A stretch of DNA of 64,000 nt from Dehalococcoidia bacterium (GTDB lineage: Bacteria; Chloroflexota; Dehalococcoidia; UBA2979), in the NCBI GenBank assembly GCA_965262725.1, contig OZ253555.1:517256-581255 (forward strand), read 5' to 3'. Shown here one piece after another: positions 1,061 through 34,922 of this stretch. Each line of letters starts with the position of its first letter. The first letter of the stretch is position 1. The notes under the pieces were generated by a model. The model ran no database searches and was not told the origin of the DNA. It worked only from the letters and a program-made list of their open reading frames with translations. The translations under genes were made by a program, and so were the position numbers.

Positions 1061-4000
1061 TCAGCGGTCCCCGCCGCCGTCCGTGCCGGCTTCAGGTGGC
1101 CCATCGCTCTTCGCGAGCAGGGGCGTCGCGGCGGGGAGGCCATCCGGGTAGAGCTCGCGGAAGGATCGGTTCACGAAGTCCGGCGCCCCGAGAATCAGGG
1201 GGACGAAGGCGCCGTCGTCGAGGGCGTAGAGGGCCGCGACGTGCCGGCCCTCCGCGCACACCACCAGCTCCGCGGCGCTCCCTCCCTCGTAGAGGACGAG
1301 GCTGAAGCCCGCGGCGACGACTCCGTGCAGGCACTCCGGCCGGGGTTCGGCTCCGCCCTCATCCCGGGGGCGACCGCCGCCGGTGTCGGGCGAGGACGGC
1401 CCGTCGCTTCGTGCGAGCAGGGGCGTGTCGGCGGGGAGGCCGCCCGCGTAGAGCTCGCGGAAGGATCGGTTCACGAAGTCCGGCGCCCCGAGGATGTAGG
1501 GGACGACGGCGCCGTCGTGCGTGGCGTAGAGGGCGGTGACCTGCCGGCCCGCGGCGCAGGGCACGAGATCCTCGACGCTCCCGCCTGCGTAGGTGAGGAA
1601 GCTGAAGCCCACGGCGACCTCGCCGCGCAGGCACACCGGGGCGGGCCCCGCCGCTTCCTCCTCGCCGAGGATCAGGCGATAGACGCGCGTGCGAGTGCCG
1701 TCCGGCGAGGTCACGGTGATGGTGATCTCGCGCCCCGGGAGCAGCCGCACGTGGTACCCGTTCTCCGGGTCGCCGTCGTGGTCCGGCGGATCGATCCCCA
1801 CAGACGCGCCGGGCTGGGCCGGCGCCGCCGTCAGGGTCGCGATGTTGCCGTCGGGGATTGTGTCGCTCGCATAGTCGTACCGCAGCGGTGAGAACTCCCC
1901 GAAGTCGACGCCGCTCAGACTCAGCGACGCGAGTCGGGCGTCGGCGGCGTCCGGCATGTTGTAGCTATAGACCCTGCCGTCGCTGGCATCGGCGACGTAC
2001 ATGACGTCTCCGTCGGACCAGAGGCCGCGCGGGCTGTTGTTGCTGGCCCGGCTCAGCTTCCTGAACTCCTCGCCCGAGATGCGTTCGAGCGGCGTCGGCT
2101 CGGCGTCCTCCGCCACGGGCGCAGCGGGCCGCGCCGGAAGGCGGTAGGCGTGGAGCCACTTGGTGATGTGGTCCGACACCCAGACGGTGACGCCGTCGGA
2201 CCAGATCCCGTGCGGGGCGTCGTTGGAGGAGTCGAGGGCGTACTCGGCGGTCCGCTCGCCGCTCTCGAGGTCGTGCGCGAAGAGCTTCTCCTGGCCGCTG
2301 TCGGAGATCCAGATGGTGCTGCGGTCGGACCAGACCCCACGCGGCGCGAGGTTGGTCTCGTCGAGCTCGAACTCGCGGTCCTCCACCCGCTCGCCGCTTG
2401 TGACGTCGTATGCGTAGATGGCGTCGTCGGCGCCCTGGCCGTTCTCGGCGATCCAGAGCGTGGCGCCATCGGACCAGGAGCCGGTGGGCTCGTCGTTGTC
2501 CGGGTCGAGCTCCTCGATGTCGCGGGTCACGTTCCACTCGAAGTCCAGGATGCTCGGGCTCGGCCCCGACGGCCCGCCGCCACCACCGCCGCCGATGGCG
2601 ATGCGCGGCGCGGTCGCCTGCTCGCCGGTGGTGATGGTCACGTCAATTCCGTCGGAGTCGCCGGATGGGTCGCGGGCCGTCACGCTCACGGCGTAGGAGG
2701 GCCGGATGGCGGGGTCCAGCACGACCCCCGCGCCCACCACGATCTGACCCGTGCCCGCGTCGATGCCGAACGACGCCGCATCGGTACCGGATAGCGTGTA
2801 GACGAGCGTGTCGCCGGCATCCGGGTCCGTGGCCGCGACCGGCGCGCCGACGTGTGCACCCGGCTCGGCGGTCTTCGGGACGGCGCGGACCCCGCTCTCG
2901 GTGGAGGGGAATTCCGGCGCTTCGTTCACGTCGGTGACGGTGATGGTCACCGCGATGGTGGCGGAGGCGAGGGATGGATCGGTGGCGGTGACCGACACGG
3001 TGTGGTGGTTCCTCGACTCATGGTTGAGCGGGGCACGCGTCCACAACTGGCCGGTCCGCTCGTCGATGCCGAAGGATGCCGCATCTGCGCCGCCCAGACG
3101 GTAGGTGAGCGTGTCGCCGGGGTCCGTGGCCTCGACGCGTGCGCCGATGTCCCGGTCTGGAGGTGTGTTCTCGGGCACGCTGCGCCCCCGGGTCTCCGTG
3201 GGCGGGAACGCGGGTGCGCTGTTGCTCACGGGCACCGCCCGCACACTCTCCGAGACCCGGTCGGCGCTCTTTCCGGAGCCCTCCCGGTCGCCGTAGGAGG
3301 CGGCGACCCGCAGGTAGTGGTGCAGGTCGGTGGCGCCCGGGGTGTAGGTGCGCGACGTGGCTCCGCCGATGGGGGTCCAGCCGCTCGTCCTGTTCAGGGA
3401 ACGCTCCCACGACCAGGTGATCGCCCCGGAGACGCCGTCGGGGTCGGCCAGCGTCGACGTCAGCGCGGTGTCAACCTGGGGCTGCAGCGACGAGAGGAGT
3501 ACCCTCCCGGCTTCGTCGACGTTGGTGACGGTGACGGTCACCGCGAGCGTGTCCTCGCTGGTCCCGTCGGAGGCGCGAACGGTCACCTGGTAGACGTTGT
3601 CGCGGTTGGCGTCTGTCGGGTTCTCGTAGTCCGGCGTCTCGCGGAGTCTGAGCGCGCCCCGCTCGATCGTGAGGTCGCCGCTGTCGGACCCTGCCAGCGA
3701 CCAGCCGATCCTGTCGCTCTCCGGGTCGGTGGCGGTGAAGGAACCGGCGAAGAGGCCGCCTCCTTCCGCGACGGTGATGCCGGGCGCCCCCCCGATGTCC
3801 GGTGCTTCGTTCACCTGGCCGACACGAACCGTGACCGCGATGCTGGCGTCCGTTGCGGGGTCGGGGTGACCGCCGGCGTCCGTGCCGTCACTGACCGACA
3901 CGAAGAAGGAGTAGCTAGTCCTGGTCTCATAGTCCAGGGGGTGCACGGTCCGCAGCTGACCGGTCGTGGAGACGATCTCGAAGGGGTCCGCGCCAGCGCC

Positions 4001-5989
4001 GCTCACCGCGTACGTGAGCGTGTCGCCGCGGTCCGGGTCCGCGGCCGCGACGGGCGCACCGATAGCTGCGCCCGCGGGCGTGTTTTCCGGTACGGCGCGC
4101 TCGCCGCTCTCGCCGGGCGGGAACGTCGGCGCCTCGTTCACGTCGGTCACGGTGATGGTCACGGGCAGCTCGCTGGCCCTGCTCCCGTCGAAGGCGCGCA
4201 CGATGACTCGATAGACGTTGTCTCCGTCGGCGTCCGCCGGGAGCTCATAGTCCAGGATCTCCGCCGTCAGCAGCTGACCGGACGCCGGGACGATGTCGAA
4301 GAGCGCGGCATCGCTCCCCACCAGGCTGTAGGTCAGCGTGTCGTCGTCGGGGTCCGTGGCCGTGACCGGCGCACCGAGGGTCGCACGCGGCCCCGTGTTC
4401 TCCACCACCGAACGCGCCGCGGCGCCACCGAACGCCGGCACGCGGTTCTCGCCGACCCTGAGTATCCGGTCCCCGCCGCCGCCGTTCGACGTGGTGACAT
4501 AGAGCGCTCCGTCGGGGCCCATCATCGGGGTCCGGAGCCGGCCGTATGTCCCGTCGAGTTGCGGTACGACGACCTGGCTCACGAGGGCCCCCTCCGGGGT
4601 GAATTCGAAGAGGCGCAGCTTCTGATCCCGCAGCGTGGCCACCGCCAGACGCCCCTCCCAGATCCCCCAGTGGGCGCCCTCAAGGAAGATGCCGCCGCTG
4701 GTGGCAACGGTGGAATTCCCGGACGACCATCTGGCCTGGGCGGCGCCGGGGAACTTCACGAGGTCGGTCATGGGGACGCTCTGGTTGTAGCCGGGCACCG
4801 GATCCCATCCGTAGTTGCCGCCGGCGGCGAGCAGGTTGATCTCGTCGTCAACCGTCGGTCCGTGCTCCACCGACCACATCTGGCTGGTACCGGGACGGAG
4901 CGCCAGGCCCTGCACGTTGCGGTGGCCGTAGGTGTAGATGAGGGGTGAGGCGGGGAACGGATTCCCCGGTGCCCCGGCGCCCGTCATGGCGTCGACGCGG
5001 AGGATCTTCCCGCCGAGCGAGTTCAGGTTCTGGGGAACCGTCCCGGTTCGCGCGTCGCCGGTCGCGATCCAGAGGTAGCCCCGCGGACCGAAGCGCAGCC
5101 GGCAGCCGCCGTGGGTGCTGGCCGTGGGGATGTCTCCAACGAGGGGGTCGGCCACCCGCGTCGCCACGGCGTAGGCGGCGTCGATGGTCCAGGCGACGAC
5201 CTGCACTTCCGGACCGGTATGGCTCTGGCAGGTGTAGAAGCGCCGGTTGGTGGAGAAGCGGGGATCGACGACGATCGCCATCAGCCCGACCTCGCCCCCG
5301 ACGAACAGGTCGCTGACATCGGCGGAGATGGTCTGGACGGTGCCGTCGGGGAGGCGGCTGCTCAGCACGCCTGAGCGCTGGGTGAACAACATCGTCCCGT
5401 CGGGCGTGAAGGCGATGTCCCACGGGATGGACAGGCCCGAGACGAGCGTGGTGACGCGGATGTCGGGCGGGGAAGCCTCGAGCGTGGAGGCGCCCTGCGC
5501 GCTCTCGCCGGAAGCACTCTCGTCGCGGTAGCCGGTCCGCGTGACGCCGTGGTCGGAAGTGGCGCCGGCCTCGGGGTCTCCTCCGGTGATGCCGGCGCCA
5601 CCGCCGGGCTCTTCCCCGGGCTGTCCCGTCGTCCCCCGCAGCAGTGGGCTGACCCTGGAGTCGTCCGTGCCGGTCGACGGGCCGGGCGTGTCCGGGGCAC
5701 CGTCGGCGAGCGCCGGAGCGGCGACCGCGGTGAGCGCGGCGACGAGCAGCAGCAGGGCGACGCCGACACCCGCACGGCGCCGGGAATGCGAGAGTCGCTC
5801 TGTCGCGATCACCCCGGCTGCTCCAGCTCCGATACTCGCCCGATACAGAGAAGCGCCCCCGTCGCCCGGTCCCGCACCAGGAAGATGAAGCGCGGGCCAA
5901 CGGTCAGCGTATCCCCACCGCGCCCCCGCAGCGGGTCGCGAACGAGTCAGGCGCCGATAGAGCCGGTGCCGCCGGTCATGAAGTGACAC
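1061..5989 (-). CDS. Giant secreted multidomain protein: signal peptide, PQQ/sorbosone-dehydrogenase-like beta-propeller, multiple cadherin-like repeats, Gly-rich linker, WSDG beta-propeller-like repeats, tandem C-terminal Cys-containing domain
   Basis: 1642 aa ORF; hydrophobic signal (RRRAGVGVALLLLVAALTAVAAPALA), so the real start is probably an internal GTG near 5810. SGDH-like block (GLSIPWDIAFTPDG...YTYGHRNVQGLA). Repeated VNEAP / DPD.DTLTY cadherin-type modules. Four W(S/I)WSDG..W(I/V).D blades. C-terminal ~85-aa domain present twice. Confidence 0.85.
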   Translation of the reverse strand: MSLHDRRHRLYRRLTRSRPAAGARWGYADRWPALHLPGAGPGDGGASLYRASIGAGAAGVIATERLSHSRRRAGVGVALLLLVAALTAVAAPALADGAPDTPGPSTGTDDSRVSPLLRGTTGQPGEEPGGGAGITGGDPEAGATSDHGVTRTGYRDESASGESAQGASTLEASPPDIRVTTLVSGLSIPWDIAFTPDGTMLFTQRSGVLSSRLPDGTVQTISADVSDLFVGGEVGLMAIVVDPRFSTNRRFYTCQSHTGPEVQVVAWTIDAAYAVATRVADPLVGDIPTASTHGGCRLRFGPRGYLWIATGDARTGTVPQNLNSLGGKILRVDAMTGAGAPGNPFPASPLIYTYGHRNVQGLALRPGTSQMWSVEHGPTVDDEINLLAAGGNYGWDPVPGYNQSVPMTDLVKFPGAAQARWSSGNSTVATSGGIFLEGAHWGIWEGRLAVATLRDQKLRLFEFTPEGALVSQVVVPQLDGTYGRLRTPMMGPDGALYVTTSNGGGGDRILRVGENRVPAFGGAAARSVVENTGPRATLGAPVTATDPDDDTLTYSLVGSDAALFDIVPASGQLLTAEILDYELPADADGDNVYRVIVRAFDGSRASELPVTITVTDVNEAPTFPPGESGERAVPENTPAGAAIGAPVAAADPDRGDTLTYAVSGAGADPFEIVSTTGQLRTVHPLDYETRTSYSFFVSVSDGTDAGGHPDPATDASIAVTVRVGQVNEAPDIGGAPGITVAEGGGLFAGSFTATDPESDRIGWSLAGSDSGDLTIERGALRLRETPDYENPTDANRDNVYQVTVRASDGTSEDTLAVTVTVTNVDEAGRVLLSSLQPQVDTALTSTLADPDGVSGAITWSWERSLNRTSGWTPIGGATSRTYTPGATDLHHYLRVAASYGDREGSGKSADRVSESVRAVPVSNSAPAFPPTETRGRSVPENTPPDRDIGARVEATDPGDTLTYRLGGADAASFGIDERTGQLWTRAPLNHESRNHHTVSVTATDPSLASATIAVTITVTDVNEAPEFPSTESGVRAVPKTAEPGAHVGAPVAATDPDAGDTLVYTLSGTDAASFGIDAGTGQIVVGAGVVLDPAIRPSYAVSVTARDPSGDSDGIDVTITTGEQATAPRIAIGGGGGGGPSGPSPSILDFEWNVTRDIEELDPDNDEPTGSWSDGATLWIAENGQGADDAIYAYDVTSGERVEDREFELDETNLAPRGVWSDRSTIWISDSGQEKLFAHDLESGERTAEYALDSSNDAPHGIWSDGVTVWVSDHITKWLHAYRLPARPAAPVAEDAEPTPLERISGEEFRKLSRASNNSPRGLWSDGDVMYVADASDGRVYSYNMPDAADARLASLSLSGVDFGEFSPLRYDYASDTIPDGNIATLTAAPAQPGASVGIDPPDHDGDPENGYHVRLLPGREITITVTSPDGTRTRVYRLILGEEEAAGPAPVCLRGEVAVGFSFLTYAGGSVEDLVPCAAGRQVTALYATHDGAVVPYILGAPDFVNRSFRELYAGGLPADTPLLARSDGPSSPDTGGGRPRDEGGAEPRPECLHGVVAAGFSLVLYEGGSAAELVVCAEGRHVAALYALDDGAFVPLILGAPDFVNRSFRELYPDGLPAATPLLAKSDGPPEAGTDGGGDR
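1120..1640. repeat. Tandem direct repeat (~255 bp x2) encoding the duplicated C-terminal domain of the minus-strand giant protein
   Basis: Near-identical nucleotide blocks (gtagagctcgcggaaggatcggttcacgaagtccggcgccccgag...) occur twice in tandem; protein repeats are PVCLRGEVAVGFSFLTYAGG...FVNRSFRELY and PECLHGVVAAGFSLVLYEGG...FVNRSFRELY. Confidence 0.8.
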
Positions 5990-5990
5990 A

Positions 5991-7174
5991 TCACATCTGC
6001 GGACGCAGTTCCGGGTGCTTGAGACCCGTACCTGTGTTGAACAGCACGATCCGCTCCTCGGGCTGGATCGTTCCTCCCGCTATCAGCAGTTCGAGCCCGA
6101 CGAGCGTCGATGCGCCCTCGGGGCAGGCGTCGATCCCCTCGGTGCGGCCGAAGCGGCGCATCGCGGGCACGATCGACTCGTCGGGGATGGCGACTGCTGC
6201 GCCACCGCTCTCGCGCAGGGTGCGCAGGATCAGGTCGTCGGCGAAGGGGCGGGCACACGAATGCCGGGCGCCACCGTCGCCGCGTTGTCCCACGGCTCGG
6301 CGCGCTCGTCGCCCCTGTCCCAGGCGCGCACGATCGGTGCGCAGCCGTCGGACTGCACAACGCACATGCGAGGCCGGTCGGTGCCGATCAGCCCCATCGT
6401 CTCCAGTTCCTCGAACGCCTTCCACATCCCGATCAGCCCGGTCCCACCGCCGGTCGGATAGAGCACCACGTCCGGCAGCTCGCCATCGAGTTGCTCCCAG
6501 AGCTCGTAACCCATCGTCTTCTTGCCCTCGGTGCGGTACGGCTCCCTGAGCGTCGACATCTCGAACCAGCCGTGCTCGCGGCAGCCCTCGGCGATGAGTC
6601 GCCCGGCGTCGTTGATCAGCCCGTCGACAAGCTGGAGATCGGCGCCAAGGTTCAGCACCTCCCGGATGATCGCCGCCGGGGTGTCGACAGGCATCGCGAC
6701 GTGGGCGGTCATGCCGCTATGGGCCGCGTAGGCAGCGGCGGCGGCGCCGGCGTTGCCCGCGGTCGGTATGCCGATGTCGGTCACGCCGAGGCGCCTCGCC
6801 ATCGCCATCGCGGCGGCGAGGCCGCGCGCCTTGAACGATCCGGTCGGGTTACCGCCCTCGTCCTTTACCAGCAGATCGCTGCAACCGAGTTCCGCACCGA
6901 GCCGCGGCGCGGCAAGGAGCGGAGTCATGCCCTCGCCGAGGGACACCAAGCCCACCAGCTCGCTGGCAGGCAGTACCTCGGCGTAGCGCCACATCGAGGC
7001 CTCGCGCCCGCCCAGGGCCTCGCGTGTGAGCGTCTCCCTCGCGCCGTCGAGGTCGTAGCGCGCGAACAGAGCGCGGCCACACTGGCGACAGATCGTCTGC
7101 AGCTCGTCGCACTCGCAACGCGCGCCGCAGATGTCGATCGCCAGGGTCATTGATCCACGCGTCGCCACGGTCAT
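5991..7174 (-). pseudogene. thrC: Threonine synthase (thrC), 5'-truncated by IS21 and carrying an internal frameshift near 6260-6280
   Basis: ORF 6230..7174 carries the PLP motif GSFKARG and an N-terminal CxxCG...CxxCG zinc ribbon. The C-terminal part (FADDLILRTLRESGG...FNTGTGLK) continues in another frame (ORF 5991..6425). The first annotated Met codons lie inside the IS21 terminal repeat. Confidence 0.75.
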
Positions 7175-7227
7175 TAGACCACCCGGGACGCCGGTAGGCG
7201 GCTTGATATCAGTGAGCGTCTAGCGCG

Positions 7228-8001
7228 TCAATCACCTCCCGTCTGCGCCTCGAGCAGGGCGCGGTGCGGCGAGAGCCGCTGGCGGTAGCTATCGCCCTCG
7301 ATCACGATCTGGTAGCTGGCGTTGGCGAGCCGGTCGAGGGCGCTGTTGCCGAGGATCGGGTCGTCGAAGAGACCCAGCCATTCCTCCACGGCGCGGTTCG
7401 AGGTGATGACGAAGCTGGAGCTGCGGTGGCGCCCGATGACCAGCTCGTAGAGGTCGATGGACTGCTGCGCGCTGAGGCGATGGAGCCCGAGGTCGTCGAG
7501 GATGAGCAGGTCGGGCGCGAGGAAGCTTCGGAAGACCTTCTCGGCCGAGTGGTCGACGCGGGCCTGCGCCATCTCGCGGAAGTAGTGGTCGGCCGGGGCG
7601 AAGCGCACGGTGCGTCCGGAGCGGACGGCTGAGTAGCCGAGCGCCTGGGCCAGGAAGCTCTTGCCGACGCCGACGGGGCCGACGAGCAGGACGTGCTCGC
7701 GGCGATCGAGGAAGTGCAGCGAGAAGGCGGCGTCGAGCAGGCGGCGGTCGAGCCGGATGGCGGCCGCCCAGTCGAAGTCCTCGAGGCGGCAGAGCTGCTC
7801 GAAGCCGGCCTGGCGCAGGCGCAGCTCCAACCGCCCGTGGTCGCGGCGGCTCACCTCGTCGACGAGCAGGATCTGCAGGAAGTCCGCGTAGTCGAGGTGG
7901 TCGCGCCGCGCGAGGGCGATGCGCTCGGGCAGGGTGTCGAGCATACGGCCGAGCTTGAGGCGCTTGAGCAGCGGACGGAGGTCTGAGGTGGTGGCGGTCA
8001 T
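7228..8001 (-). CDS. istB: IS21 helper ATPase IstB
   Basis: Starts MTATTSDLRPLLKRLKLGRMLD; Walker A GPVGVGKSFLAQALG, Walker B LLILDDLG; ATGA overlap with the istA stop. The ORF-track 491-aa extension upstream is a read-through artefact. Confidence 0.9.
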   Translation of the reverse strand: MTATTSDLRPLLKRLKLGRMLDTLPERIALARRDHLDYADFLQILLVDEVSRRDHGRLELRLRQAGFEQLCRLEDFDWAAAIRLDRRLLDAAFSLHFLDRREHVLLVGPVGVGKSFLAQALGYSAVRSGRTVRFAPADHYFREMAQARVDHSAEKVFRSFLAPDLLILDDLGLHRLSAQQSIDLYELVIGRHRSSSFVITSNRAVEEWLGLFDDPILGNSALDRLANASYQIVIEGDSYRQRLSPHRALLEAQTGGD

Positions 8002-9578
8002 CGTGGTGCTCCTGTCGGGGTCTGCGTGCGGGACTGTGCGAAGACGGAGCCCGAGTGGGCGAAGCGCCCCGGAGGTGGCGGCAGCTCGGGCTGGTCTGGG
8101 GTGCTCTCCTGGTCGAGGGCCTCGACGAGGATGCGCTCGAGGCGGCGCACGTCGATGAGGTCGACCTCGAGCGCGCGGCGGCAGGCGGCGTCGAGGCGGT
8201 CGGGGGAGTAGCGCTCGGCGAGCCGGAGGAGCTTGTGGCCCTGCCGCAGCTTCGCCCAGGGCAGGGAGCCCTCGAAGAGACGCTCGGCGTAGGCGCCCAC
8301 GGCCTCCCCCAGCTCGGCGGCGCGGCGCTGTATCCAGTCGGGCGCCCGCCTGGTGTAGGGGGTGAGCTCGGCCGGGTAGTCGTTCGGGTCGGTGGCCCGG
8401 CCGCCCCGGCGCTGGCGCGGGTGGACCTTGATGAGCTGACCGCGGTGGTAGATGCGCACCAGCTTCGAGCCGAGCTGCACCTCGACCTTCTGGCGGGGCG
8501 GGCAGGCCGTGGACGGCACCGAGTACAGCGCGTACTGGCAGGCGATGTGGTGGTCGGGATGGACCGTGGCGGTCCGCCAGTCGGGGACCTCGTAGGGCTC
8601 GCCGTCCCACGGAGCGAGCAGAGGGAGCTCCTCCTCCCGGAAGACCTCGAGCGGCCGGCGGCGGGTCGTGCCGTGGATGCGCTGCCCCGCCACCTCGAGG
8701 CACCAGCTGCGGGCGGCGGAGCGCAGGTCGACGATGTCCCGGAAGTCGCCGCCCTTGAAGAGGCGCTCGCGCACGTAGGGGATGCTGCGCTCGACGCGCG
8801 GCTTGTCGCGGGGATGACGTACGCGCGCCGGGTCGGTGATGAAGCCTCTGTGGCGGGCGTACTCGAGGAAGCCCCGGGTGAGGCGCGGGTGGAGCGCGTC
8901 GGCCCCGGCCACGGCGGCCGGGAAGTTATCGATGACGAGGTAGCGGGGCACGCCCCCGAAGAAGGACCAGGCCTCCTCCAGGCCCTCGATCACGGCGTCC
9001 AGCGTCTGGCTGGTGGTGGGCCACACAAAGCAGTGGCGTGAGTAGCGCCAGACGACGACCAGCGCCCACACCGCGCGCCGGCGGCCGCTCTCGGGGTCCC
9101 GGATGAAGCCGAGGCGGCCGAAGTCCATCTCCGCCACCTCGCCCGGCGGCCCGTCGTCCATGCGCACGGTCGACGGCAGCCGGTGGCGCCAGCCGCGGCG
9201 CCGGATGAAACGCCGCAGCGTGGTGTAGGAGACCTCGCAGCCTCGTCCGGCGAGGAGCTCCTGGATGCGCGTCAGTTGCAGGCGGTCGGTCTCAAGCCAG
9301 CGCTCGATCTGCTCCGCCCAGGGCGAGAGCAGCTCCTCGCTCGGCGCCTCGACCTGCCGCGGGCCGGAGAGGCTCAGCGTCGCCAGCGCGGCGAGCTGCT
9401 CCTCACTCGGCTCGGGACCGCCCGGCGTGAGGCCGGCCGCCTCGGCCGCCTCGACGTAGCGGCGCACCGTCACGCGCGATAGCCCCGTGCCGCTGGCGAT
9501 GCGGCGCTGGCTGAGCCCCGCCTGCCAGCGTCGAATGATCTCCTGGATCTCCACCCCGTGTACCTCCCGGTAGGCCAT
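7998..9578 (-). CDS. istA: IS21 transposase IstA
   Basis: Starts MAYREVHGVEIQEIIRRWQAG (HTH) followed by a DDE integrase-like core; typical IstA size (~527 aa). Confidence 0.9.
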   Translation of the reverse strand: MAYREVHGVEIQEIIRRWQAGLSQRRIASGTGLSRVTVRRYVEAAEAAGLTPGGPEPSEEQLAALATLSLSGPRQVEAPSEELLSPWAEQIERWLETDRLQLTRIQELLAGRGCEVSYTTLRRFIRRRGWRHRLPSTVRMDDGPPGEVAEMDFGRLGFIRDPESGRRRAVWALVVVWRYSRHCFVWPTTSQTLDAVIEGLEEAWSFFGGVPRYLVIDNFPAAVAGADALHPRLTRGFLEYARHRGFITDPARVRHPRDKPRVERSIPYVRERLFKGGDFRDIVDLRSAARSWCLEVAGQRIHGTTRRRPLEVFREEELPLLAPWDGEPYEVPDWRTATVHPDHHIACQYALYSVPSTACPPRQKVEVQLGSKLVRIYHRGQLIKVHPRQRRGGRATDPNDYPAELTPYTRRAPDWIQRRAAELGEAVGAYAERLFEGSLPWAKLRQGHKLLRLAERYSPDRLDAACRRALEVDLIDVRRLERILVEALDQESTPDQPELPPPPGRFAHSGSVFAQSRTQTPTGAPR

Positions 9579-9649
9579 CGCTGCTCCCTCCGCTGGGGAT
9601 GCAGGCGATGGTGGCCGTACCGGCGACCCGGGCGGGCAGGAGTCCCTGA

Positions 9650-9735
9650 CGGGGTGGATCAATGACCCTGGCGAAGTGGATCAATGACCCTGGCGATCTG
9701 GCGATTTCGTGGTCTATAGACCTTGGCGATTCACA
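9650..9735. repeat. IS21 right-end multiple terminal repeats (putative transposase binding sites)
   Basis: Two tandem copies of GTGGATCAATGACCCTGGCGA plus GGTCTATAGACCTTGGCGA; related copies in inverted orientation at the left end (7132-7180). Confidence 0.7.
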
Positions 9736-9742
9736 CCGCAGA

Positions 9743-9881
9743 TCGAGCACTCGAGGTGCGTGAGCGTGGATGCTGGCAGCTTTGTCAGCGTCTCAACCTC
9801 CAGGCGGCGGCGGTGCTCGGGCGCGCGCGAGGTGAGGCCCCCACGTCGGTTGTTGAACGCGAGCGGCTCCGCGGTCCGCAT
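9743..9881 (-). pseudogene. thrC: Displaced 5' fragment of thrC (N-terminal leader up to the first zinc-ribbon cysteines)
   Basis: The minus-strand frame ...EVETLTKLPASTLTHLECSICG joins exactly onto ...ARCECDELQTICRQCG of the 3' part once IS21 and one TSD copy are removed. Confidence 0.55.
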
Positions 9882-10221
9882 CTCCACATCGGCGCATAGA
9901 ATCGCAGCACGGCCGACTTCCGCCTGCACAGGACGGTTGGGCGAGTATGGTGCCACGAATCCGCCCGGCTCTGCGCCTGCGGCTCCCGGTCCTCCTCGGC
10001 GCCGGTGCACTCCTGAGGGTCGGCCTGTCACGCGGAGTCGGGACGTCGGGGGCGTCATCATCACGCACCCGTTCGACCCAGCTGCGACTCAGCAGGGTGG
10101 GCTCGGCTGCGGTTCCGGCGACGCAGGGCTGGCGCGGCGAGTTGCGGCGACATCGGTCGCTTCGCGCCCGCCGCGCCAGCCGTCGCCCTCGGCGGTTGCC
10201 ATTGGCGAGGTGGGCCGCAGG

Positions 10222-11175
10222 ATGCACAGATGGACCGGTACACTGACCGGACGACCCGGCGTCGACTGCGACAGCCCGGTCGAGGCCGGCTCCCCCGATG
10301 CGAGTGAGGATCGGAGCGTGACCCTGCCGTTCGGCACAGCCAGCGAGCGAGGCCCGGCGACGCGATGGGCCGCCGGAGCAGTGCCCGGGCTCCTGGGCGC
10401 GGTGTTGTTCCTCGCAAGCTGCAGCTCGACCGAGCCGGCCGGCGCGCCGGCACCGGCCCCTCCACGAGCCGCCACCACCACTGCGAGCGCTCAGCCGGCG
10501 ATCGTGCCCGCTCGCGCGCCGTCTGGCGCCGCCCCCCTCGCGAGCCCGCCACCCACCACCGCTGCGCCTGCCCTGTCGCCGACGCCGCAGCCCGGGGCAG
10601 GTTCAGCACCCGGGGGATCGCAGTCGCTCGGGCGGGATGATGGTTCGGCCGTCGAGCCGGGGGCCGGAGGCACCAAGTCCGGCGACGCCCGGCAGGTGAA
10701 GGGCGACTCGGCCTCCACGCCCGCCACGGGGACCGTCTACACCTGGCAGGACGGCGACCGCACCGAGCGGGTGCTGCTGCAGGCCGACCTCGTCCTGCAG
10801 AGCAATGAGGAGAACCGGAACGATGATGAGGTCGTCACCCGCGGCGACACCGCGAGCGTCGTTCGCGCGCAGCCCCGGCATGATGAGGCCGACACCGATC
10901 CCGTCTTCCGCTCGCCGGCCGGCGACCTGATGACGCTGCCCGGCGGGGTGCTGCTCGCCCTCGACGCCGGCTGGGACCAGGCGAGGGTGGACCGCTTCTT
11001 CTCGGACAACGACATCGACCGGAGCCGCGTGGAGGGGCGGGACTTCGCCGTCAACGCCTTCTTCGTGACGACTCAGCCCGGATTCCCCTCGCTCACCCTG
11101 GCCAACGAACTCGCCGCACAGGACGGCGTGTTGATCTCCAGCCCGAACTGGCGAACGGAAGCCGTTCTCCGGTGA
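10222..11175 (+). CDS. Secreted lipoprotein, hypothetical (possible partner of the downstream giant protease)
   Basis: ATG at 10222; lipobox LFLASCSS; Pro/Ala-rich linker; C-terminal globular part; stop overlaps the GTG start of the giant ORF (translational coupling). Confidence 0.55.
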   Translation: MHRWTGTLTGRPGVDCDSPVEAGSPDASEDRSVTLPFGTASERGPATRWAAGAVPGLLGAVLFLASCSSTEPAGAPAPAPPRAATTTASAQPAIVPARAPSGAAPLASPPPTTAAPALSPTPQPGAGSAPGGSQSLGRDDGSAVEPGAGGTKSGDARQVKGDSASTPATGTVYTWQDGDRTERVLLQADLVLQSNEENRNDDEVVTRGDTASVVRAQPRHDEADTDPVFRSPAGDLMTLPGGVLLALDAGWDQARVDRFFSDNDIDRSRVEGRDFAVNAFFVTTQPGFPSLTLANELAAQDGVLISSPNWRTEAVLR

Positions 11176-14100
11176 GCCGTCGGTCGCTGCTCGCGGCCCT
11201 CGCCGCGCTGTGTCTCATGGTCGGGGCGGGGCATGTGGAGGCGAGCACGCCCGGCGCGCCCACGGTCGGCACCATCACCGCCACCACCAACTCGCTCACC
11301 GTGCCGTGGACCGCGCCCTCGGACAATGGTGGTTCGGTGATCGTCGCCTACGACCTGCGCTACATCCGCACCGACGCGACGCCTGCGCGCAAGGCGGACG
11401 ACGCCAACTGGACCGTCGAGGAGGTCTGGACGACGGGCGGCGGCAGCCTCGAGACCGAGGTGAAGGATCTCTCCGACGGCGTGGAGTTCGACGTGCAGGT
11501 GCGCGCCGACAACCAGAACGGCGACATCGGCGAGTGGTCGCAGACCGCCACCGGCACCACCACCGACCACGGCGACAGCACCTCCTCGGCGACATCACTC
11601 ACGCTGGGCGGCTCGGTGATCGGGCGGATCGAGCCCGCAAACGACGCGGACGTGTTCCAGATCGTCCTCACGAGCGCCGCCGACCTCTGGGTCTACGCCG
11701 ACGGCGAGCTCGACTCGGTGGGCGAGCTGCTGGACTCGAGAGGCTCGCTCATCACGCGGGACCCCCGGAACGACCGGCTCGGTCCGCGAGACGGGTTCAG
11801 CCTCCGGCGGGAGGTCGAGTCGGGAACCTACTACGTTCGCGTCATCAGCTACCGGGGCTTCGCCTCAGGCTCGTACACCATCCACGCCCGCGCCGCGATC
11901 GACCCCGGCGACAGCGCGGCCACGGCGACGACCGTCACGCTCGACTCGGTGACGCCCGGACGCATCGACGCCCGGTCGGACGAGGACTACTTCAAGCTGG
12001 TCCTCGGCAGCGCCGCCGAGATCTGGGTCATGGCCGCCGGCGACCTGGACACCTACGGCGAGCTGCTCCGCGAGAACGAGACTGTCCTGGCCGAGAACGA
12101 TGACGGTGGGCTGTCGGGCAACAGCCTGGGATTCGTGCTGAGTCGGGAGCTGGCGGCGGGAACCTACTACATCCGCGTCAGCGGCGTCGGCTTCGAGCCG
12201 ACCGGAACCTACGCGCTGCATGTGCGGACGGTCGTCGATCCCGGCGGCGACGCGGCTACCGCGGCGCCGCTCACCCTCGGCGCGCCCGAAAGCGGCCGAA
12301 TCTCCTCGTCGAGTGACGAGGACTTCTTCAGCCTCACGCTGGCAGAGGACACCTACGTCTTTGTCTACGCCCTGACCCTCGGTAGCGCGCTGCCGCTCAC
12401 GGCGACGGTCCTCGACGGGACGGATACTCCCGTGTCCCTGACGCAGGTCATTCCCCACTCGACCTGGGCCGCCAACGGCAAAGAGGAGGTGAGCGTCTCG
12501 CTCTGGGGGAAGCTGGACGCCGGGACGTACCACATTCAGGTGCGGCGCTCCGGCAGCAGGAACGGGGCCTACCTCCTCCACGCCCTCGCCTCGCCCTACA
12601 ACCAGGCGCTTGCGCGGTGCACCGCTCTGACCACGCCGGAGAGCGACCCCTGGTACGGATGCCAGTGGCACCTCGGCAACACCGGCCAGTTCCCCGGCGG
12701 CGCCGGGCACGACATCAACGTCGAGAGCGTCTGGGCGGGAGGAAACAAGGGCTCGGGCGTGAACATCGCCCTCGTCGACGACGGCCTCCAGAGCGACCAC
12801 GTCGACCTGAGCGCGAACGTCATCGCCGCACGCAACCGCGACTATCAGGGCAACAACAACGTCTTCGATCCGCTCGACACCCACGGCACGGCCGTCGCCG
12901 GCCTCATCGCCGCGCCGGAGAATGACATCGGCGTGCGGGGCGTGGCCCCCGAGGCACGCATCTACGCCTACAACCTGATCACCCACGAGACGTCCACCTC
13001 TGACCATTTGCAAGACGCCATGACGCGCCATCTGCAGGACACGGCCGTCTCCAACAACAGCTGGGGCTTTGTCACGACCGGCCTCCCTCGGGGCTCAGGT
13101 ACGGTCTGGGAGAGTGCGGTCGAGCGGGGAGTGACGGAGGGGTTCGGAGGCAAGGGCATCGTCTACGTCTGGGCAGCCGGCAACGGGCACCCGGAGAACG
13201 GCAACTCCAACTTCGACGGCCTCGCGAACTTCTACGCGGTCACAGCCGCCTGCGCGGTCGGCTACGACGACCGCCGGAGCGCGTACTCCGAGATGGGCGC
13301 CAACCTCTGGATCTGCGCGCCCTCCAACAGCGGTCGCTACGGCCTGCCGCGGATTGCGACGACCCACCAGGTCGACCGCTACCGCGAGGACTTCGGCGGC
13401 ACCTCGGCAGCCACGCCCATCGTCTCGGGCGTGGTTGCCCTCATGCGCGCCGCCAACGCGGACCTCACGTGGCGCGACGTCAAGCTCATCCTCGCCGCGT
13501 CCGCGCGCCAGAACGACTCCGGGAACGGCGGGTGGGAGCAGGGCGCGCTCCGGTACGGCTCGACGACCGACCGCTACTCGTTCAATCACGAGTACGGCTT
13601 CGGCATGGTCGACGCCGCAGCCGCCGTCGCCCTCGCCGACGGCTGGACGATCGTCCCGAAGCTACGGGAATCCGGGGCCGAGTCGGGAGACATCGGACTC
13701 GCGATTCCCGACGCACCCGACGTGGGCGCACCCACCGCCCTGACCGACAGCCTGACGCTCGACTCCCATGTCGCATTCGTCGAGTTCATGGAGATCGAGA
13801 TCACCCTGGAACACAACTGGTTCCGCGATCTCCAGATCGAGCTCGTGTCGCCGGCCGGCGCCGTCTCCGTGCTCTCCGTGCCCGCCCTCTCCGTCCTCCT
13901 GAGGGGGTCGTTCGACGGCAGCCATCGCTTCGGGTCGGCCAGGCACCTGGGCGAGAAGGCCGAGGGAACCTGGACGCTGCGCGTCACGGACACCCTCCAC
14001 GACGATACGGGCACGCTCACGTCGTGGAAGCTCACGGCCTACGGCCACGGGTACGTCCCGATCTCCCCCGACATCGATGAGGTGGTCGAGGGCCCCGGTT

Positions 14101-17100
14101 CCCTCACCATCACCTGGAAGGAGCCCGAGGATGTCGGCGCGTCCGACGTCACCTCCTACGACCTTCGCCACATCCGCGACGACGCGACCGACTTCGCCGA
14201 CGGCCGCTGGCGGGAGCTTCCCGGCGTCGGGAGCCTCACGGATCGGCAGCACACCGTGAGCGGGCTGGACGGGGACACGAAGTACCGGGTCGCCCTCCGG
14301 GCCCGGAACGCCGACGGCATCGGGCCCTGGTCTGACTTCGCCGCCGAGCAGACGGAGCAGGCAGTCCCGGGCAGCCCCCGCTCCGTATCGGTCGCCCCGC
14401 GCGACGCCGGCCTCGCGGTCTCGTGGCGCGTTCCGGGCTACGCCGGCGCCGGCACCCCGACGTCCTACGACGTCCGCTACATCCGGAGCGATGCCACCGA
14501 CAAGGCCGACGCCTTCTGGAGCGTCGTGACCTTCGCCTGGAGGACCGGCGACGGAGACCTCCGCTATGTGATCGGCGGCCTCGACCACACTCTCAGCTAC
14601 GACGTGCAGGTGCTGGCACGCAACGACGCCGACGAGGGAGCGTGGTCCACAACCGCGACGGGGACGCCGGCCCGCCCCAACACCAACAGCCCCGCCGAGT
14701 TCCCGAACAGCGAGAGCGGCCAGCGCAGCGTGATCGAGAACACCCCGACCGGGCGGGACATCGGCGATCCCGTCGCCGCCCGCGACGACGACGGCGACAC
14801 GCTGACGTACTCGCTGACCGCAGGCGCCGCCAACTTCGACATCGACGAGCAGACCGGGCAGCTGCTGACGAAGGTCGCGCTCGACCGCGAGCGGACCGCG
14901 AGCTACCAGGCGACCGTCGCCGTCCACGACGGCAAGGCCGCAGACGGCACGGCGAGCACCGCCACGGACGACACGATCCGCGTGACCATCACCATCGACG
15001 ACGAGGACGAGCCGCCTGTGGTCATGGGCGGCACGACCCCCGTGGTCCGGGAGAACACCACCACCGTCGGCACCTACCGCGCGCGGGATCCCGAGCGTCG
15101 GGCGAACACCTTCACGTGGTCGCTGGGCGGCGACGACGCGAGCGCCTTCGCCCTCAGCGAGAACGGCGTGCTCACCTTCGACCCCGCCCCCGACTTCGAG
15201 GCGAGGGCGGACGCAGACCGCGACAACGCCTACGAGGTCACCATCGAAGCGAACGACGGCAGCCTGACCGGCGACCTGGACGTGCGGGTCAGAGTCGAGG
15301 GCGTCGACGAGCCGCCCGAGATCAGCGGCGACTCGAGTGTCGAGTTCGCGGAGAACGGCTCGACGCGCGTCGGCCGCTACACGGCCAGCGACCCGGAGGG
15401 AGCCGCCGTCTCCTGGCAGACGCTGGCCGGGCCGGAGGCGCGCTACTTCACGTTCGACGCAGGCACCGGCAATCTGAGCTTCGCCGCCACGCCGGACTTT
15501 GAGGCCCGCAGCAGCGCGGTCTACCGGGTCACCGTGCGGGCCGCCGACGAGGGCAATCGGGTCGGCGGCCTGCCCGTGACCGTCACCCTGACCCCCGTCG
15601 ATGAGCCGCCCGAGATCAGCGGGCCGGACGAGGTCACCCTCAACGAGGTCATCAACCCGACCCCGGGGCAGGTGGTGGCCGTCGGGAGTTACACCCGGCG
15701 CGATCCCGAGGGCTCCTCCACCAACTGGGGGTCGGTCGGGAGCGCCACGGTGCTCACCGGCGCCGACGCACGCGAGTTCGACTTCGACCAGCGCAGCGGC
15801 AGGCTCACCTTCCGGGCGCCGCCCGACTCCGAGAGCGGGAGCGCGTCGTACCAGGTCACGCTGAACGCCAACGACGGCGTGCTGAACGGCAGGCTCGAGG
15901 TGACCGTCCACGTCGCCAACCTCGACGAGCCCGGCGCGGTGACCCTCGACCGGAGAACCCCCGTCATCAACCGCACGGTCACGGCCACGCTTGAGGATGC
16001 CGACGGCGTGGTCAGCAAGAACTGGCAGTGGCAGCGCTCGCCGGGCCGCACGGGCCCCTGGTCGGATATCGACAGCGCCACCTCGCGCAGCTACACGCCC
16101 GCCCCCGACGACCGCGGCGCCTACCTGCGCGCGAGCGCCGAGTACGAGGACGGCCACGGCGCGGGCAAGACGGCGCCGCCGGGCGTCTCGGAGTTCCCGG
16201 CCGCCAACGTCCGCACCTCGAACACGCCGCCGGTCCTCCCGGACGCGGTCGACGACATCTCCCTCCTGGAGAACACCCCGCGGGGGCGCACCGTCGGCAC
16301 CGTGCGCGCCACCGACGCGGAGAACGACCCGCTGACCTACTCGCTCACCGGGGCAAGCGAGTTCGTGATCGGCCGCACGACCGGCCAGATCCGGGTCGCC
16401 CCCGGCGCGGTCTTCGACTTCGACTCCGGCCGGATCAGCTACTCTCTCATGGTCACCGCCAGGGACATCTTCGACGCCGCCGACTACGTCGACGTCACCA
16501 TCACCCTCACCGGCGTGGACGAGCCGCCGGTGGCGGAGCCCGACGCCTCTTCGACGAACGAGGACGAGCCGGTCGTCATCGACGTGCTCTCGAACGACAG
16601 CGATCCGGAGGCCGCCGACCTGGCCGTCACGGCGGTGAGCCGGCCCGGCAGCGGCACGGCGACCGCAGGTCCCGGCAGCGGGGAGATCACCTACACCCCC
16701 CGCGCCGACTACCACGGCGCCGACGGCTTCCGCTACACGGTCTCCGACGGCGCCCTGCGGGACGAGGGCACGGTCTCCGTCACCATCCGGCCGGTGAACG
16801 ACCCCCCGGAGTTCCCGCCGTCCGCGGCCGAGCGCTCCGTCGCCGAGTCCGCCGGCGCCGGCGAGCCGGTCGGCGCGCCCGTCGCGGCGACGGACCGCGA
16901 CGGCGACGACCCGACCTACCGCCTCTCGGGCTCGGCGGACTTCGAGATCGCGGAGGACTCCGGCCAGATCACCGTGGGGGCCGGCACGGCCTTCGACGTG
17001 TCGATTCAGGAGACCTACACGGTGACCGTCGACGCGAGCGATGGGAACGGCGGCCGGGCGAGCGTCGAGGTCACCATCACCGTGACGACGCAGCCGGTCG

Positions 17101-18780
17101 GGCCGACGATCGTGTTCGGGGGTGGTGGGGGCGGCGGCCCCTCGGGCCCGACGCCCAGCGAGATCGAGTTCGAGTGGAACGTCACCCGCGACATCGAGGA
17201 GCTCGACGGCGGCCACGATGTCCCCACCGGCTCCTGGTCCGACGGCGCGACGCTCTGGCTCGCCGAGAACGGCGACGGCGCCGACGACGCGGTCTACGCC
17301 TACGACCTCGCCACGGGCGAACGCGTCGAGGAGCTCGAGTTCGAGCTCGACGACGCCAACCTCGCGCCCCGTGGGGTCTGGTCCGACCTCCGCACCATCT
17401 GGATCTCCGACAGCGGCAAGGACAAGCTCTTCGCACACGACCTCGCAAGCGGCGAGCGCCTCCCCGACTCCGATCTCGCACTGCACCCCGACAACGACGA
17501 CCCGCGCGGCATCTGGTCGAACGGCCCGACGCTGTGGGTGCTCGATGGCCGCGACAACGCCCTCTACGGCTACGACCTGGAGAGCGGCGAGCTGCTCGCG
17601 GGGTACGCCCTGGACGACGCCAACGACGACCCGCACGGCATCTGGTCCGACGGCACCTCCGTCTGGGTCTCCGATGACGTCGCCAAGCGCCTCTTCGCCT
17701 ACCGCCTGCCCTCGCTCGAGGAGGAGGACACGAGCGCGGACGAGGAAGAGGACCTCGAGCTCGCGCGCGTGCGCGATGAGGAGTTCTGGAGGCTGAGCCG
17801 GGCCAGCAACAACAGCCCGCGCGGTCTCTGGTCCGACGGCGACGTGATGTACGTCGCCGACTCCAGCGACGGCAGGGTCTACAGCTACAACATGCCGGAC
17901 GGGATCGACGCCCGGCTGGTATCGCTTGCGCTCAGCGATGTCGAGATCGGCGAGTTCTCACCCGGCCAGACGGAATACGAGGGCGTCGCGAGTGAGGGCG
18001 CTACCGAGACGACGGTCGAGGCGGCCGCGGCGCGCCGCACGGCGGTCGCCATCGACCCCCCCGACGCGGACGAGGTCGCCGACGGCCACCAGGTGGCGCT
18101 GGACGGACTCGATGAGATCACGGTGACCGTGACCTCTCCCGACGAGAGCCGCAGGGGGGTCTACCTCGTGCGCATCGGCGCTGCGGCCGAGGCGGAGCGG
18201 TCGGCGGCGCCCTGCCTGAGCGGCGCCGTGGCGGTGAGCTTCAGCATCCTCATCTACGAGGGGGGCGGCATCGGCGACCTGGTCGGCTGCGCGGAGAGCC
18301 GCCACGTCACGGCGCTCTACGCGCTCGAGGGCGGCGCCTACGTGCCCTACATCCTCGGGGCGCCCCAGTTCGTGAACAGGCCCTTCATCGAGCTGTACGC
18401 GGAGGGCGTCCCGGCCGTGACGCTCTTCATCGCCGGAAGCGACGGACCGGCCACGGCCGACCCGGCGAGCGACGGCGGCGCGGCGCAGTCCTGGCCGGAG
18501 TGCCTGCGCGGCGAGATCGCCACGGGCTTCAGCCTCGTGCTCTACGAGGGCGGGAGCGTCGAGGAGGTCGGCGCCGTGCGTGCAGGGCCGCGGCGTTACG
18601 GCGCTCTACGCGCTCGAGGGCGGCGTCTACGCGGCGTACATCCTCGGGGCGCCCGAGTTCGTGAATCGGCCGTTCTTCGAGCTGTTCGCGGACGGCCTGG
18701 CCCCGATGACACCGCTGATCGCCAAGAGCGAGGGGCCGCCGGCCGCGGTCGCGGATCGCGGGGACGTGCCCGACAACTGA
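11172..18780 (+). CDS. Giant secreted subtilisin-like (S8) protease with FN3, 4x PPC, P-domain, many cadherin-like / VCBS-like repeats, WSDG propeller-like repeats and tandem C-terminal Cys domain; apparent frameshift near 18570-18590
   Basis: Signal peptide MSRRSLLAALAALCLMVGAGHVEA. S8 triad motifs DDGLQSDH, HGTAVAGLIAA, GTSAATPIVSGVVALM; P-domain DLQIELVSPAGAVSVL. The ORF-track 2839-aa frame becomes Arg-rich junk after ~18580, while ORF 18580..18780 (+1 frame) continues the homologous domain (VTALYALEGGVYAAYILGAPEFVNRPFFELF) and stops at 18780. Confidence 0.8.
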
Positions 18781-19174: not shown

Positions 19175-20191
19175 GTGTCCGCGTCCGCGCCGCCGTCTCC
19201 CTCGCCGACGCCGTCGGCATCTGCCCCCGCTCCGCTCTGGCGGCGGGCGCCCGTGCTGGCGCTCGTCGTGGCGCGGCGCGCGACCGCGAACTTCATCAGT
19301 GTCGGCGCCGCGCAGATCGCGGCGGGCATCTCCTACTACGCTCTCATCTCGCTGTTCCCGCTGGCGTTGCTGGCGTTCTCGGCGTTCGGCCTCGTGCTCC
19401 GCGACGAAGAGCTGCAGCAGCGCGTGCTCGACGGGATCGTCGCGGGGATCCCGGTGGAGGCGCCGATCGTCGAGGAGGCCCTCGCCGCGCTCGCGAGCGG
19501 CGGAGCCACCATCGGGCTGGTGGCGCTGGTCGCCACGATATGGACGGGGAGCGCCCTCGCCGCCGCGCTGCGCAGGGCACTCAACACCATCTTCGAGGTG
19601 GACCGGGCCCGCCCGTTCGTGCAGGGCAAGCTCGTCGACGTCACGATCGCGCCGGTGCTCGGGTTCCTGCTGCTCGTGTCGCTCGTGCTGACGACGGGGT
19701 GGCGTCTCGCGCAGGCCGAGGCGGTGGACTTCGGGATCCTGCGGGAGCAGGGGTTCGTCTGGGAGCTCGGCGCAGTCGGAATCACCGGACTGATCAGCTT
19801 CCTCGCGTTTCTCTTCCTCTACTGGCTGCTCCCGAACTCCTCGCTGAGGCCGCGCTACCTCTGGCCCGGGGCGTTGCTCACCGCGGTGGGGTTCGAGGCG
19901 GTCAAGTTCGGGTTTGCGGCCTACCTGGCGCACTTCGGCAACTACGACGTGATCTACGGCTCGCTCGGAGGCGTCATCGCGATGCTGGTCTGGGTCTTCG
20001 TCAGCGTCAACATCATGCTCCTTGGCGCCGCGGTCTCAGCGGAGATCCCGCGAGCGTTGCGGGGGGAGGATCGTCCCGGAGACGAGAGCGCGCGCGATGT
20101 GCGCTGGCGGGAGTCGGCGCTCCTGCTGCTGCGCGGGCTGTTCTTCGGACCAGACGAGTCGACACCGGAGCCGCGGAGCCGGGGCCGCTGA
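19175..20191 (+). CDS. YihY/BrkB-family inner membrane protein
   Basis: ISYYALISLFPLALL motif with multiple TM helices, typical of the YihY / virulence factor BrkB family. Confidence 0.8.
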   Translation: MSASAPPSPSPTPSASAPAPLWRRAPVLALVVARRATANFISVGAAQIAAGISYYALISLFPLALLAFSAFGLVLRDEELQQRVLDGIVAGIPVEAPIVEEALAALASGGATIGLVALVATIWTGSALAAALRRALNTIFEVDRARPFVQGKLVDVTIAPVLGFLLLVSLVLTTGWRLAQAEAVDFGILREQGFVWELGAVGITGLISFLAFLFLYWLLPNSSLRPRYLWPGALLTAVGFEAVKFGFAAYLAHFGNYDVIYGSLGGVIAMLVWVFVSVNIMLLGAAVSAEIPRALRGEDRPGDESARDVRWRESALLLLRGLFFGPDESTPEPRSRGR

Positions 20192-34762: not shown

Positions 34763-34922
34763 AGGGCATCGGTGAGCCGGATGAGGGAAAACCTCACGTC
34801 CGGTTCGAGGCGGCAGGGGCTGGAGACGGACGATGCTACGGCTGTGGAGATGGGCGCCACCGGGAAACCGGCCTGGCAATATGCGCCACCGCCTACGGCT
34901 CGCACCGCGCCAGCCCCTGACC

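Follow-up and report, generated by a model that had tools for sequence, protein, structure and literature searches.

Surface proteins that monoderm bacteria make as many paralogues normally keep their constant end close to the cell, where it serves as the anchor, as in the LPXTG, SLH, CWB2, and GW systems. Giant adhesins of the RTX/type I secretion system (T1SS) kind carry C-terminal RTX nonapeptide repeats, a T1SS signal, and an N-terminal retention module. How sponge symbionts attach to their host, and how they are distinguished from food bacteria, is an open question, and the prior evidence comes mostly from counting eukaryote-like domains such as cadherin and FN3. The Dehalococcoidia/Tepidiformaceae are a lineage prevalent in marine sponges. 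Cadherin and FN3 genes are enriched in metagenome-assembled genomes (MAGs) from sponges (PMC8163846). Here, we analyzed a 64,000-nucleotide (nt) stretch of DNA (hereafter, the window; ~71% G+C) from a Dehalococcoidia bacterium (GCA_965262725.1, contig OZ253555.1, positions 517,256 to 581,255), which contains two giant genes, A on the minus strand (1061..5812) and B on the plus strand (11172..18780). Both encode secreted proteins that end in the same constant module of ~540 amino acids (aa), comprising a conserved segment with an FEW motif, a propeller of WSDG blades (five, sometimes four), a beta-sandwich of the PF12733 family, and two 82-aa domains with two cysteines each. We conclude that A and B are ordinary members of a large, as yet unnamed, family of giant proteins.

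A sequence-only reading of the window had proposed that A and B have different heads joined to a common C-terminal architecture. This was borne out, as the head of A is a glucose/sorbosone dehydrogenase (GSDH) and that of B an S8 peptidase, and both lead into one collinear constant module. A blastp comparison of A residues 1014-1639 with B residues 1868-2530 gave 54.5% identity and 602 bits, which is far beyond chance, and in a global alignment the two proteins remain collinear from the Gly7 hinge onward, as far as the stop codon. With the order of parts kept from end to end, the likeness is that of a collinear block and not a generic resemblance between cadherins. It is also visible at the DNA level, as inverted repeats of 389, 288, and 204 nt with 72-83% identity at the expected places.

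The shared block begins with the hinge, GGGGGGGPSGP(S/T)PS, and the FEWNVTRDIEELD segment (the FEW motif), which together occupy 2495..2593 on the minus strand in A (PSGPSPS) and 17118..17216 on the plus strand in B (PSGPTPS; predicted to be disordered on its own). The WSDG blades follow, four in A (1940..2494) and five in B (17217..17909; modelled as a five-bladed beta-propeller). The difference is a one-blade indel of 45 aa, with blade 3 of the five-blade consensus missing from A. Next comes the Cadherin-like beta-sandwich, PF12733, at 1667..1939 in A (residues 1353-1439; 30.6 bits) and 17910..18179 in B (27.2 bits), both above the gathering cut-off of 24.2 bits. The two-Cys domains complete the module. 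In A, the first (1394..1639; Cys1453/Cys1478), which has a beta-alpha-beta-beta-alpha-beta order, and the second (1094..1339; Cys1553/Cys1578) are followed by a short acidic tail and then the stop, with no hydrophobic segment. In B they lie at 18210..18455 and 18495..18741, the second being broken by a +1 frameshift at ~18575 that is absent from an orthologous contig (L077). The expectation of four to five WSDG blades followed by two copies of a two-Cys domain was thus correct.

Identity between A and B is uneven along the module. Overall it is 62-63%, rising to 79% in the hinge plus FEW segment and 73% of aligned positions in the propeller; it is 63-65% in the two-Cys domains and 46% in the PF12733 sandwich. 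The earlier figure of about 80% therefore holds for the hinge and first blades, but not for the whole block, for which blastp gave the value reported above. Upstream of the hinge, identity is 47% in the last cadherin domain and 42% in the W.W(E/Q)RS domain, and B has an extra Big_9 domain between its W.WQRS domain and the conserved block. The W.WxRS domain, which had been counted as part of the well-conserved region, lies outside it. This domain (W.W(E/Q)RS…SYTP…YLR…Y.D..G; ~3200-3500 on the minus strand, ~15930-16220 on the plus strand) has no Pfam match at E≤0.01 and looks like another uncatalogued Ig-like repeat.

A protein search with the B module, in which 8000 candidates were scored so that the count is a lower bound, matched more than 813 proteins, at around 60-70% identity. 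For the best 120, identity is 54-88% and coverage of the query 76-99%; PF12733 is listed for most of them. None of these 120 carries a name, and neither do the members from the seven clusters that we checked. A scan of one genome per species yielded 450 genomic stretches in which the module was confirmed by tblastn; our locus-level counts are based upon 76 of these, from 18 assemblies. Of the 18 assemblies, 17 bear the label Dehalococcoidia, Tepidiformaceae, or Dehalococcoidaceae; the remaining locus (L070) is on a 10-kb contig in a "Gammaproteobacteria" bin. A single 3.3-Mb chromosome, OZ244720.1, harbors at least 20 module loci and, by summed lengths of open reading frames (ORFs), which give a lower bound, the family takes up at least ~137 kb, or at least 4%, of that chromosome. 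A and B are not a private pair of paralogues but belong to this multigene family.

The module continues the frame of a long upstream ORF in all 76 loci. In 42 of them this ORF is still open 2000 aa upstream and, with few exceptions among the 76, the stop comes after the second two-Cys domain. A poly-Gly hinge of 3 to >30 glycines, encoded by mixed GGC/GGT/GGG codons, is present in at least 70 of the 76, usually with a hydrophobic PP(I/V)III(T) stretch directly before it. The sequence-only reading had suggested looking for the module fused to other heads elsewhere, and many alternatives were found. Among 27 members, the heads and stalks include cadherin (18), fn3 (11), Big_9 (10), and Calx-beta (8) domains, S8 plus P-domain (4), GSDH (3), and Spondin_N (3), and, more rarely, RCC1 (2), arylsulfotransferase (2), sulfatase (1), and FG-GAP (1). 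Heads of both the A type and the B type thus recur in other members. Sizes range from ~700 aa (L070, which has a signal peptide, one FN3 domain, and the module) to more than 4000 aa, and a signal peptide can be recognized in A, in B, and in many other members.

The profile of a single two-Cys domain identified 889 cluster representatives (E≤1e-3) among 1.84 billion. In nearly all of them the domain occurs as two tandem copies at the extreme C-terminus, in proteins of up to 5146 aa; five copies, with the GAPxFVNxxF motif retained, occur in a few diverged proteins. A and B fit family alignments of 25 and 48 sequences end to end, and they have the Sec signal, poly-Gly hinge, and collinear module at the extreme C-terminus that define the family.

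Many members in other assemblies are broken by frameshifts (loci L005, L029, L042, L059, and L063; proteins P0272 and P0273), so that their upstream part lies in a different frame; several of the breaks are at the poly-Gly hinge or within the second two-Cys domain, which suggests either frequent pseudogenization or systematic sequencing errors in GC-rich repeats. We considered whether the short genes that seem to encode a stand-alone module form a separate class, but these are mostly frameshift-broken giant genes, although genuine short members such as L070 do exist. At another locus (L037; OZ244720.1, 1-12153), the frame runs ~1500 codons past the module to give at least 4050 aa, perhaps through read-through that fuses it to the following gene in a tandem array.

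The folds of the module were examined with AlphaFold2 and Foldseek. A model of the B blades plus sandwich, built on the 48-sequence alignment, has a mean predicted local distance difference test (pLDDT) score of 77.5 and shows five blades, mostly at 80-93, followed by a beta-sandwich; the FEW segment (residues 1-26) scores below 50. When the propeller was compared with the PDB, five-bladed glutaminyl cyclases ranked first (3nol, 3mbr, 2iwa) and NHL and other propellers next. The best E-value for the cyclases was 1.5e-9, with a template modelling (TM) score to the target of 0.64-0.71 over ~240 aligned residues and 12-14% identity. Module pieces have no match to a glutaminyl-cyclase family in Pfam, even at E≤10, and as judged from the model the likeness is one of fold only. 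The five-bladed fold is common to the module and the glutaminyl-cyclase/NHL propellers but, unlike the five-bladed cyclases, the module also has four-blade variants (gene A and P0091). The WSDG blade itself is not in Pfam or NCBIfam; two Pfam matches to the blades, NCH3 and PQQ_2, look spurious.

The tandem two-Cys domains were modelled with a pLDDT of 82.9 (cores >90) as two independent beta-alpha-beta-beta-alpha-beta units. Foldseek against the PDB gave a best E-value of 0.83, a profile search of PDB sequences gave nothing meaningful, and there is no match in Pfam (E≤10) or NCBIfam (E≤1). Both cysteines of each unit are invariant in the family alignment, and those of the two-Cys domains make up four of the six cysteines in mature A and four of the eight in mature B. 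Cysteines that are this rare, strictly paired, and invariant fit an extracytoplasmic, disulfide-bonded domain.

The module shows no match to SLH, LPXTG, or PEP-CTERM elements. There is no LPXTG motif, hydrophobic helix, or basic tail at the end of A (…KSDGPPEAGTDGGGDR, then stop) or B (…KSEGPPAAVADRGDVPDN, then stop), and relatives terminate in …AKRD or …ARSE. SLH gave no match in the whole of A or B at E≤0.01, nor in the module pieces at E≤10. For PEP-CTERM, GlyGly-CTERM, PGF-CTERM, and similar signals, an NCBIfam search with the C-terminal 503 aa returned two chance-level matches (E 0.067 and 0.13). RTX/HemolysinCabind has no match in A or B, and the sole T1SS-related match was again at chance level (E 0.13). 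Since the Pfam (E≤10) and NCBIfam (E≤1) scans of the module pieces gave PF12733 as their sole credible match and no curated sorting signal, the possibility raised in the sequence-only reading, that the modules map to well-known anchoring domains, falls away. With no LPXTG motif, hydrophobic segment, or basic tail, any attachment would have to be non-covalent.

By analogy with monoderm systems in which the constant end is the anchor, we infer that the module tethers these proteins to the envelope of the symbiont. Our preferred reading, to which we assign an even chance, is that it would do so non-covalently, on the cell's own monoderm envelope, with the head facing outward. The giant protein would be exported by Sec via its N-terminal signal peptide, and the module at its base would then bind an envelope component, possibly peptidoglycan or the S-layer. 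The hinge and stalk would hold the variable head away from the cell, so that the proteases, oxidoreductases, sulfatases, and adhesion domains facing the sponge matrix could adhere to or modify it. We count in favor of anchoring that the order of head, stalk, hinge, and constant C-terminus mirrors that of monoderm wall-anchored adhesins, and in favor of the sponge setting that L070 comes from a metagenome bin of the sponge Ircinia ramosa.

Several points weigh against tethering. No part of the module has a known wall- or S-layer-binding likeness, and all parts are very acidic (isoelectric point ~4.1-4.2), unlike the many classical domains for wall binding that are basic. The propeller and PF12733 are generic ligand- or carbohydrate-binding folds, for which host glycans are an equally possible target. 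The records of most module-bearing MAGs do not state a habitat. Finally, because many copies, including B, are frameshifted, some members may be decaying.

This last point leads to the rival explanation that gene B is a decaying pseudogene and the finding in part gene debris. Translation of B past …YEGGSVEEVGA yields Arg-rich nonsense, and the true continuation, CVQGRGVTALYALEGG…DN, lies in the +1 frame and ends at a stop at 18780. The uncorrected ORF instead extends to 19691, over a BrkB/YihY gene (19175-20191), so the end at 18780 given previously is right once the +1 frameshift is spliced, but not for the ORF as it stands. The metagenome contig L077 (ENA ERZ25766727) has 91-96% nucleotide identity to the B region and the same downstream BrkB gene. 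At the frameshift site it reads GGCGC-GTGCGCG where the window has GGCGCCGTGCGTG, from which we deduce that the window holds one extra C at ~18575. From the sequence, the extra C may be either a true lesion or an assembly error. The position of the frameshift inside the last two-Cys domain, the frameshifts in several relatives of B, and the nearby IS21 and group II introns would all suit decay. However, this is the single lesion across 7.6 kb, the remaining frame is intact with its catalytic motifs retained, the L077 ortholog is unbroken at the site, and a single-base assembly error could account for the extra C. We therefore consider decay of B unlikely, though a serious contender.

The main rival to tethering, as regards function, is that the constant module is itself the business end, a lectin-like unit whose targets would be sponge glycans, matrix, or other cells. 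In that case, the proteins would either leave the cell or be retained on it by other means. Five-bladed propellers and PF12733 are typical ligand- and carbohydrate-binding scaffolds, the acidity of the module is unlike that of many wall-binding domains, the family was recovered essentially from one sponge-prevalent lineage, and Pfam and NCBIfam revealed no anchoring motif in the module. On the other hand, an adhesive repertoire (cadherin, FN3, Calx-beta, and spondin) is already present in the heads and stalks, and a stalk between head and module is more sensible if the module is the base. Conservation of the module among paralogues and genomes is also of the ordinary purifying type, and no region of it is hypervariable. 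Binding of host glycans by the module, with release or another mode of retention, thus seems to us improbable on balance, but it carries substantial weight.

An assembly role is possible too. According to this explanation, the module is an oligomerization unit, and contacts between propellers or between two-Cys domains would bundle the giant proteins into a surface lattice, a fibre, or a complex associated with the S-layer. The tens of paralogues per genome with near-identical tails and the tandem arrangement of the two-Cys domains are compatible with it, as are the unexplained regular complexes reported on the S-layer of Tepidiforma (PMC10284905), although that link is speculative. The sequence and model evidence presented here would look the same under simple anchoring, and we regard assembly as distinctly improbable.

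The sequence-only reading had also suggested that the tails of A and B were homogenized by recent gene conversion. The inverted-repeat arms do reach 82-83% nucleotide identity, and from the hinge to blade 2, A-B nucleotide identity in 50-codon windows is 83-91%, compared with 78-79% for the family median; in this stretch, B is among the top three of the 74 partners compared with A. However, loci from other genomes equal the best A-B window (0.91 for L001), the tract at blades 1-2 being common to A, B, L001, and P0008/P0013, and over most of the remaining module A and B do not exceed the family median (sliding identity versus 73 other copies). Across the whole module A and B are 62% identical, compared with an all-pairs family median of 65%. 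The copy nearest to A is L064 (68%) and those nearest to B are L004/L001 (69%), all in other assemblies, while B is closer still to its ortholog, P0001 (88%), and to the orthologous contig. The Nei-Gojobori proportions of synonymous and nonsynonymous differences (pS/pN) are 0.40/0.22 for A-B and 0.39/0.21 as medians of 150 random family pairs. With A and B no closer over the module than random family pairs, recent conversion between them is so improbable that, at the scale of the entire module, it can be regarded as refuted in effect. Recent duplication or conversion does occur in the family, as indicated by paralogues with 94-98% identity in other genomes, though not for A-B.

Returning to the genes themselves, the open frame of gene A spans 1061..5989 (1642 codons, back to GTG 5989). 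GTG 5812 is the sole internal start codon ahead of the signal peptide and is the likely start, giving a product of about 1583 aa. The Sec-type signal peptide, read from the translation, is at 5702..5812 (…RRRAGVGVALLLLVAALTAVAAPALA/DG). The head, a PQQ-type GSDH beta-propeller (PF07995, residues 186-505), lies at 4475..5434 and matches profile positions 1-328/332 with 225 bits (E 1.6e-66), above the cut-off. The stalk at 2594..4447, C-terminal to the head, consists of cadherin and Big_9-type Ig repeats, including the W.WERS domain and four cadherin domains in Pfam.

Once one base is removed, gene B encodes a 2535-aa giant subtilase/adhesin. Its signal peptide (MSRRSLLAALAALCLMVGAGHVEA/S, from the translation) is at 11172..11243 and is followed by an FN3 domain and PPC-type pre-peptidase repeats (11244..12671). 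The head at 12750..14036 comprises Peptidase_S8 (residues 527-797; PF00082, 131 bits, E 7e-38) and a proprotein-convertase P-domain (residues 873-955; PF01483, 69 bits), both above their cut-offs, and the Asp/His/Ser triad motifs VDDG, DTHGT, NNSWG, and GGTSAATP can be read in the translation. The stalk (14064..17117) runs through two FN3 domains, cadherin, the W.WQRS domain, cadherin, Big_9, and cadherin.

Directly upstream of B, at 10318..11175 on the plus strand, is a small lipoprotein-like gene. Its product has a lipobox (LFLASC) and a Pro/Ala-rich spacer, followed by a domain of ~150 aa for which Pfam gives no match even at E≤10, and the stop codon of the gene overlaps the start of B (GTGA). 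The domain is present in 14 of the 76 related loci and, in all 11 with a visible downstream region, the gene stands directly upstream of a member with an FN3-PPC-S8 head, so that a lipoprotein gene ahead of a giant subtilase gene forms a recurrent cassette. The product could be a propeptide acting in trans, an inhibitor, or another partner of the giant subtilase. We also considered it as a general membrane receptor for the module, and rejected this because it is found only directly upstream of S8-head members.

The IS21 copy that had been placed between the two genes is indeed there, at 7228..9662 on the minus strand, with IstA at 7998..9662 (PF00665, rve, and PF22483, Mu-transpos_C_2) and IstB at ~7228..8000 (PF01695, 177.7 bits in 7228..8703). 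Between gene A and this element, an ORF at 6230-7174 on the minus strand encodes a pyridoxal-phosphate-dependent enzyme (PALP). Its Pfam match covers profile positions 1-228/295 and ends at the C-terminus of the ORF, which may be truncated. Just downstream of the 3' end of A lies a PIN-domain ORF (191-628, minus strand; PF01850, E 7.5e-11) that may be a toxin-antitoxin remnant. Downstream of B, a ~550-nt repeat occurs in four plus-strand copies (20355-20909, 31125-31672, 32241-32795, and 33103-33657), three of which are 99-100% identical. Each contains the D1-D4 5' region of a group II intron (RF02003, 95-103 bits), and one match to domain V/VI (RF00029) is at 34772-34839. These intron pieces lie in lower-GC stretches of the window (64-67% G+C).

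One C-terminal module therefore marks dozens of giant secreted proteins per genome, so a single profile could list the whole candidate surface proteome of these uncultured Chloroflexota. Neither of two domain types in it, the WSDG blade and the two-Cys domain, is represented in Pfam or NCBIfam or has a solved relative, and a single recombinant module would allow its binding target to be tested. The broader claim that the hinge, propeller, sandwich, and two two-Cys domains form an unrecognized envelope targeting or anchoring system of monoderm Chloroflexota, with the two-Cys domain as a new fold family and the tagged proteins as the host-facing surface set, is more tentative, and we judge its chances to be a little short of even. 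If true, the module would be a functional counterpart of SLH, LPXTG, or the C-terminal domain (CTD) of the type IX secretion system (T9SS). The family would then constitute a surface "adhesome/exo-enzyme" set, occupying at least 4% of the genome, for attachment of sponge-associated Tepidiformaceae to the matrix of their host and its remodelling.

How, then, does the family compare with systems already described? By their profile matches, nothing sets the S8 and GSDH heads or the PF12733 domain apart from the known families to which they belong. Cadherin and FN3 abound in the heads and stalks of both proteins and of their relatives, as in the eukaryote-like proteins reported as enriched in sponge symbionts (PMC8163846), but the sponge-symbiont literature counts domains, and in the literature that we searched we found no description of the module, of a common C-terminal module, or of a family architecture. 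RTX/T1SS giant adhesins have no Sec signal, whereas A and B have Sec-type signal peptides. Adhesins of the LPXTG/sortase type, such as the MSCRAMMs (microbial surface components recognizing adhesive matrix molecules), are closer in design, with a Sec signal, an N-terminal head, an Ig-like stalk, and a C-terminus that is constant across paralogues, but they end in a short sorting signal where A and B have a folded, acidic, three-domain module of ~540 aa. The T9SS CTD cargo of Bacteroidota offers another parallel, in that one conserved C-terminal domain is carried by dozens of unrelated heads per genome and marks a "surface proteome." However, the module is six times larger than that CTD and multi-domain, it has no match to a CTD model in NCBIfam, and T9SS is a diderm system. 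The module also resembles the SLH, CWB2, and GW type of non-covalent anchoring found in S-layer organisms, where small folded domains likewise stand in tandem at one end of a variety of secreted enzymes and adhesins.

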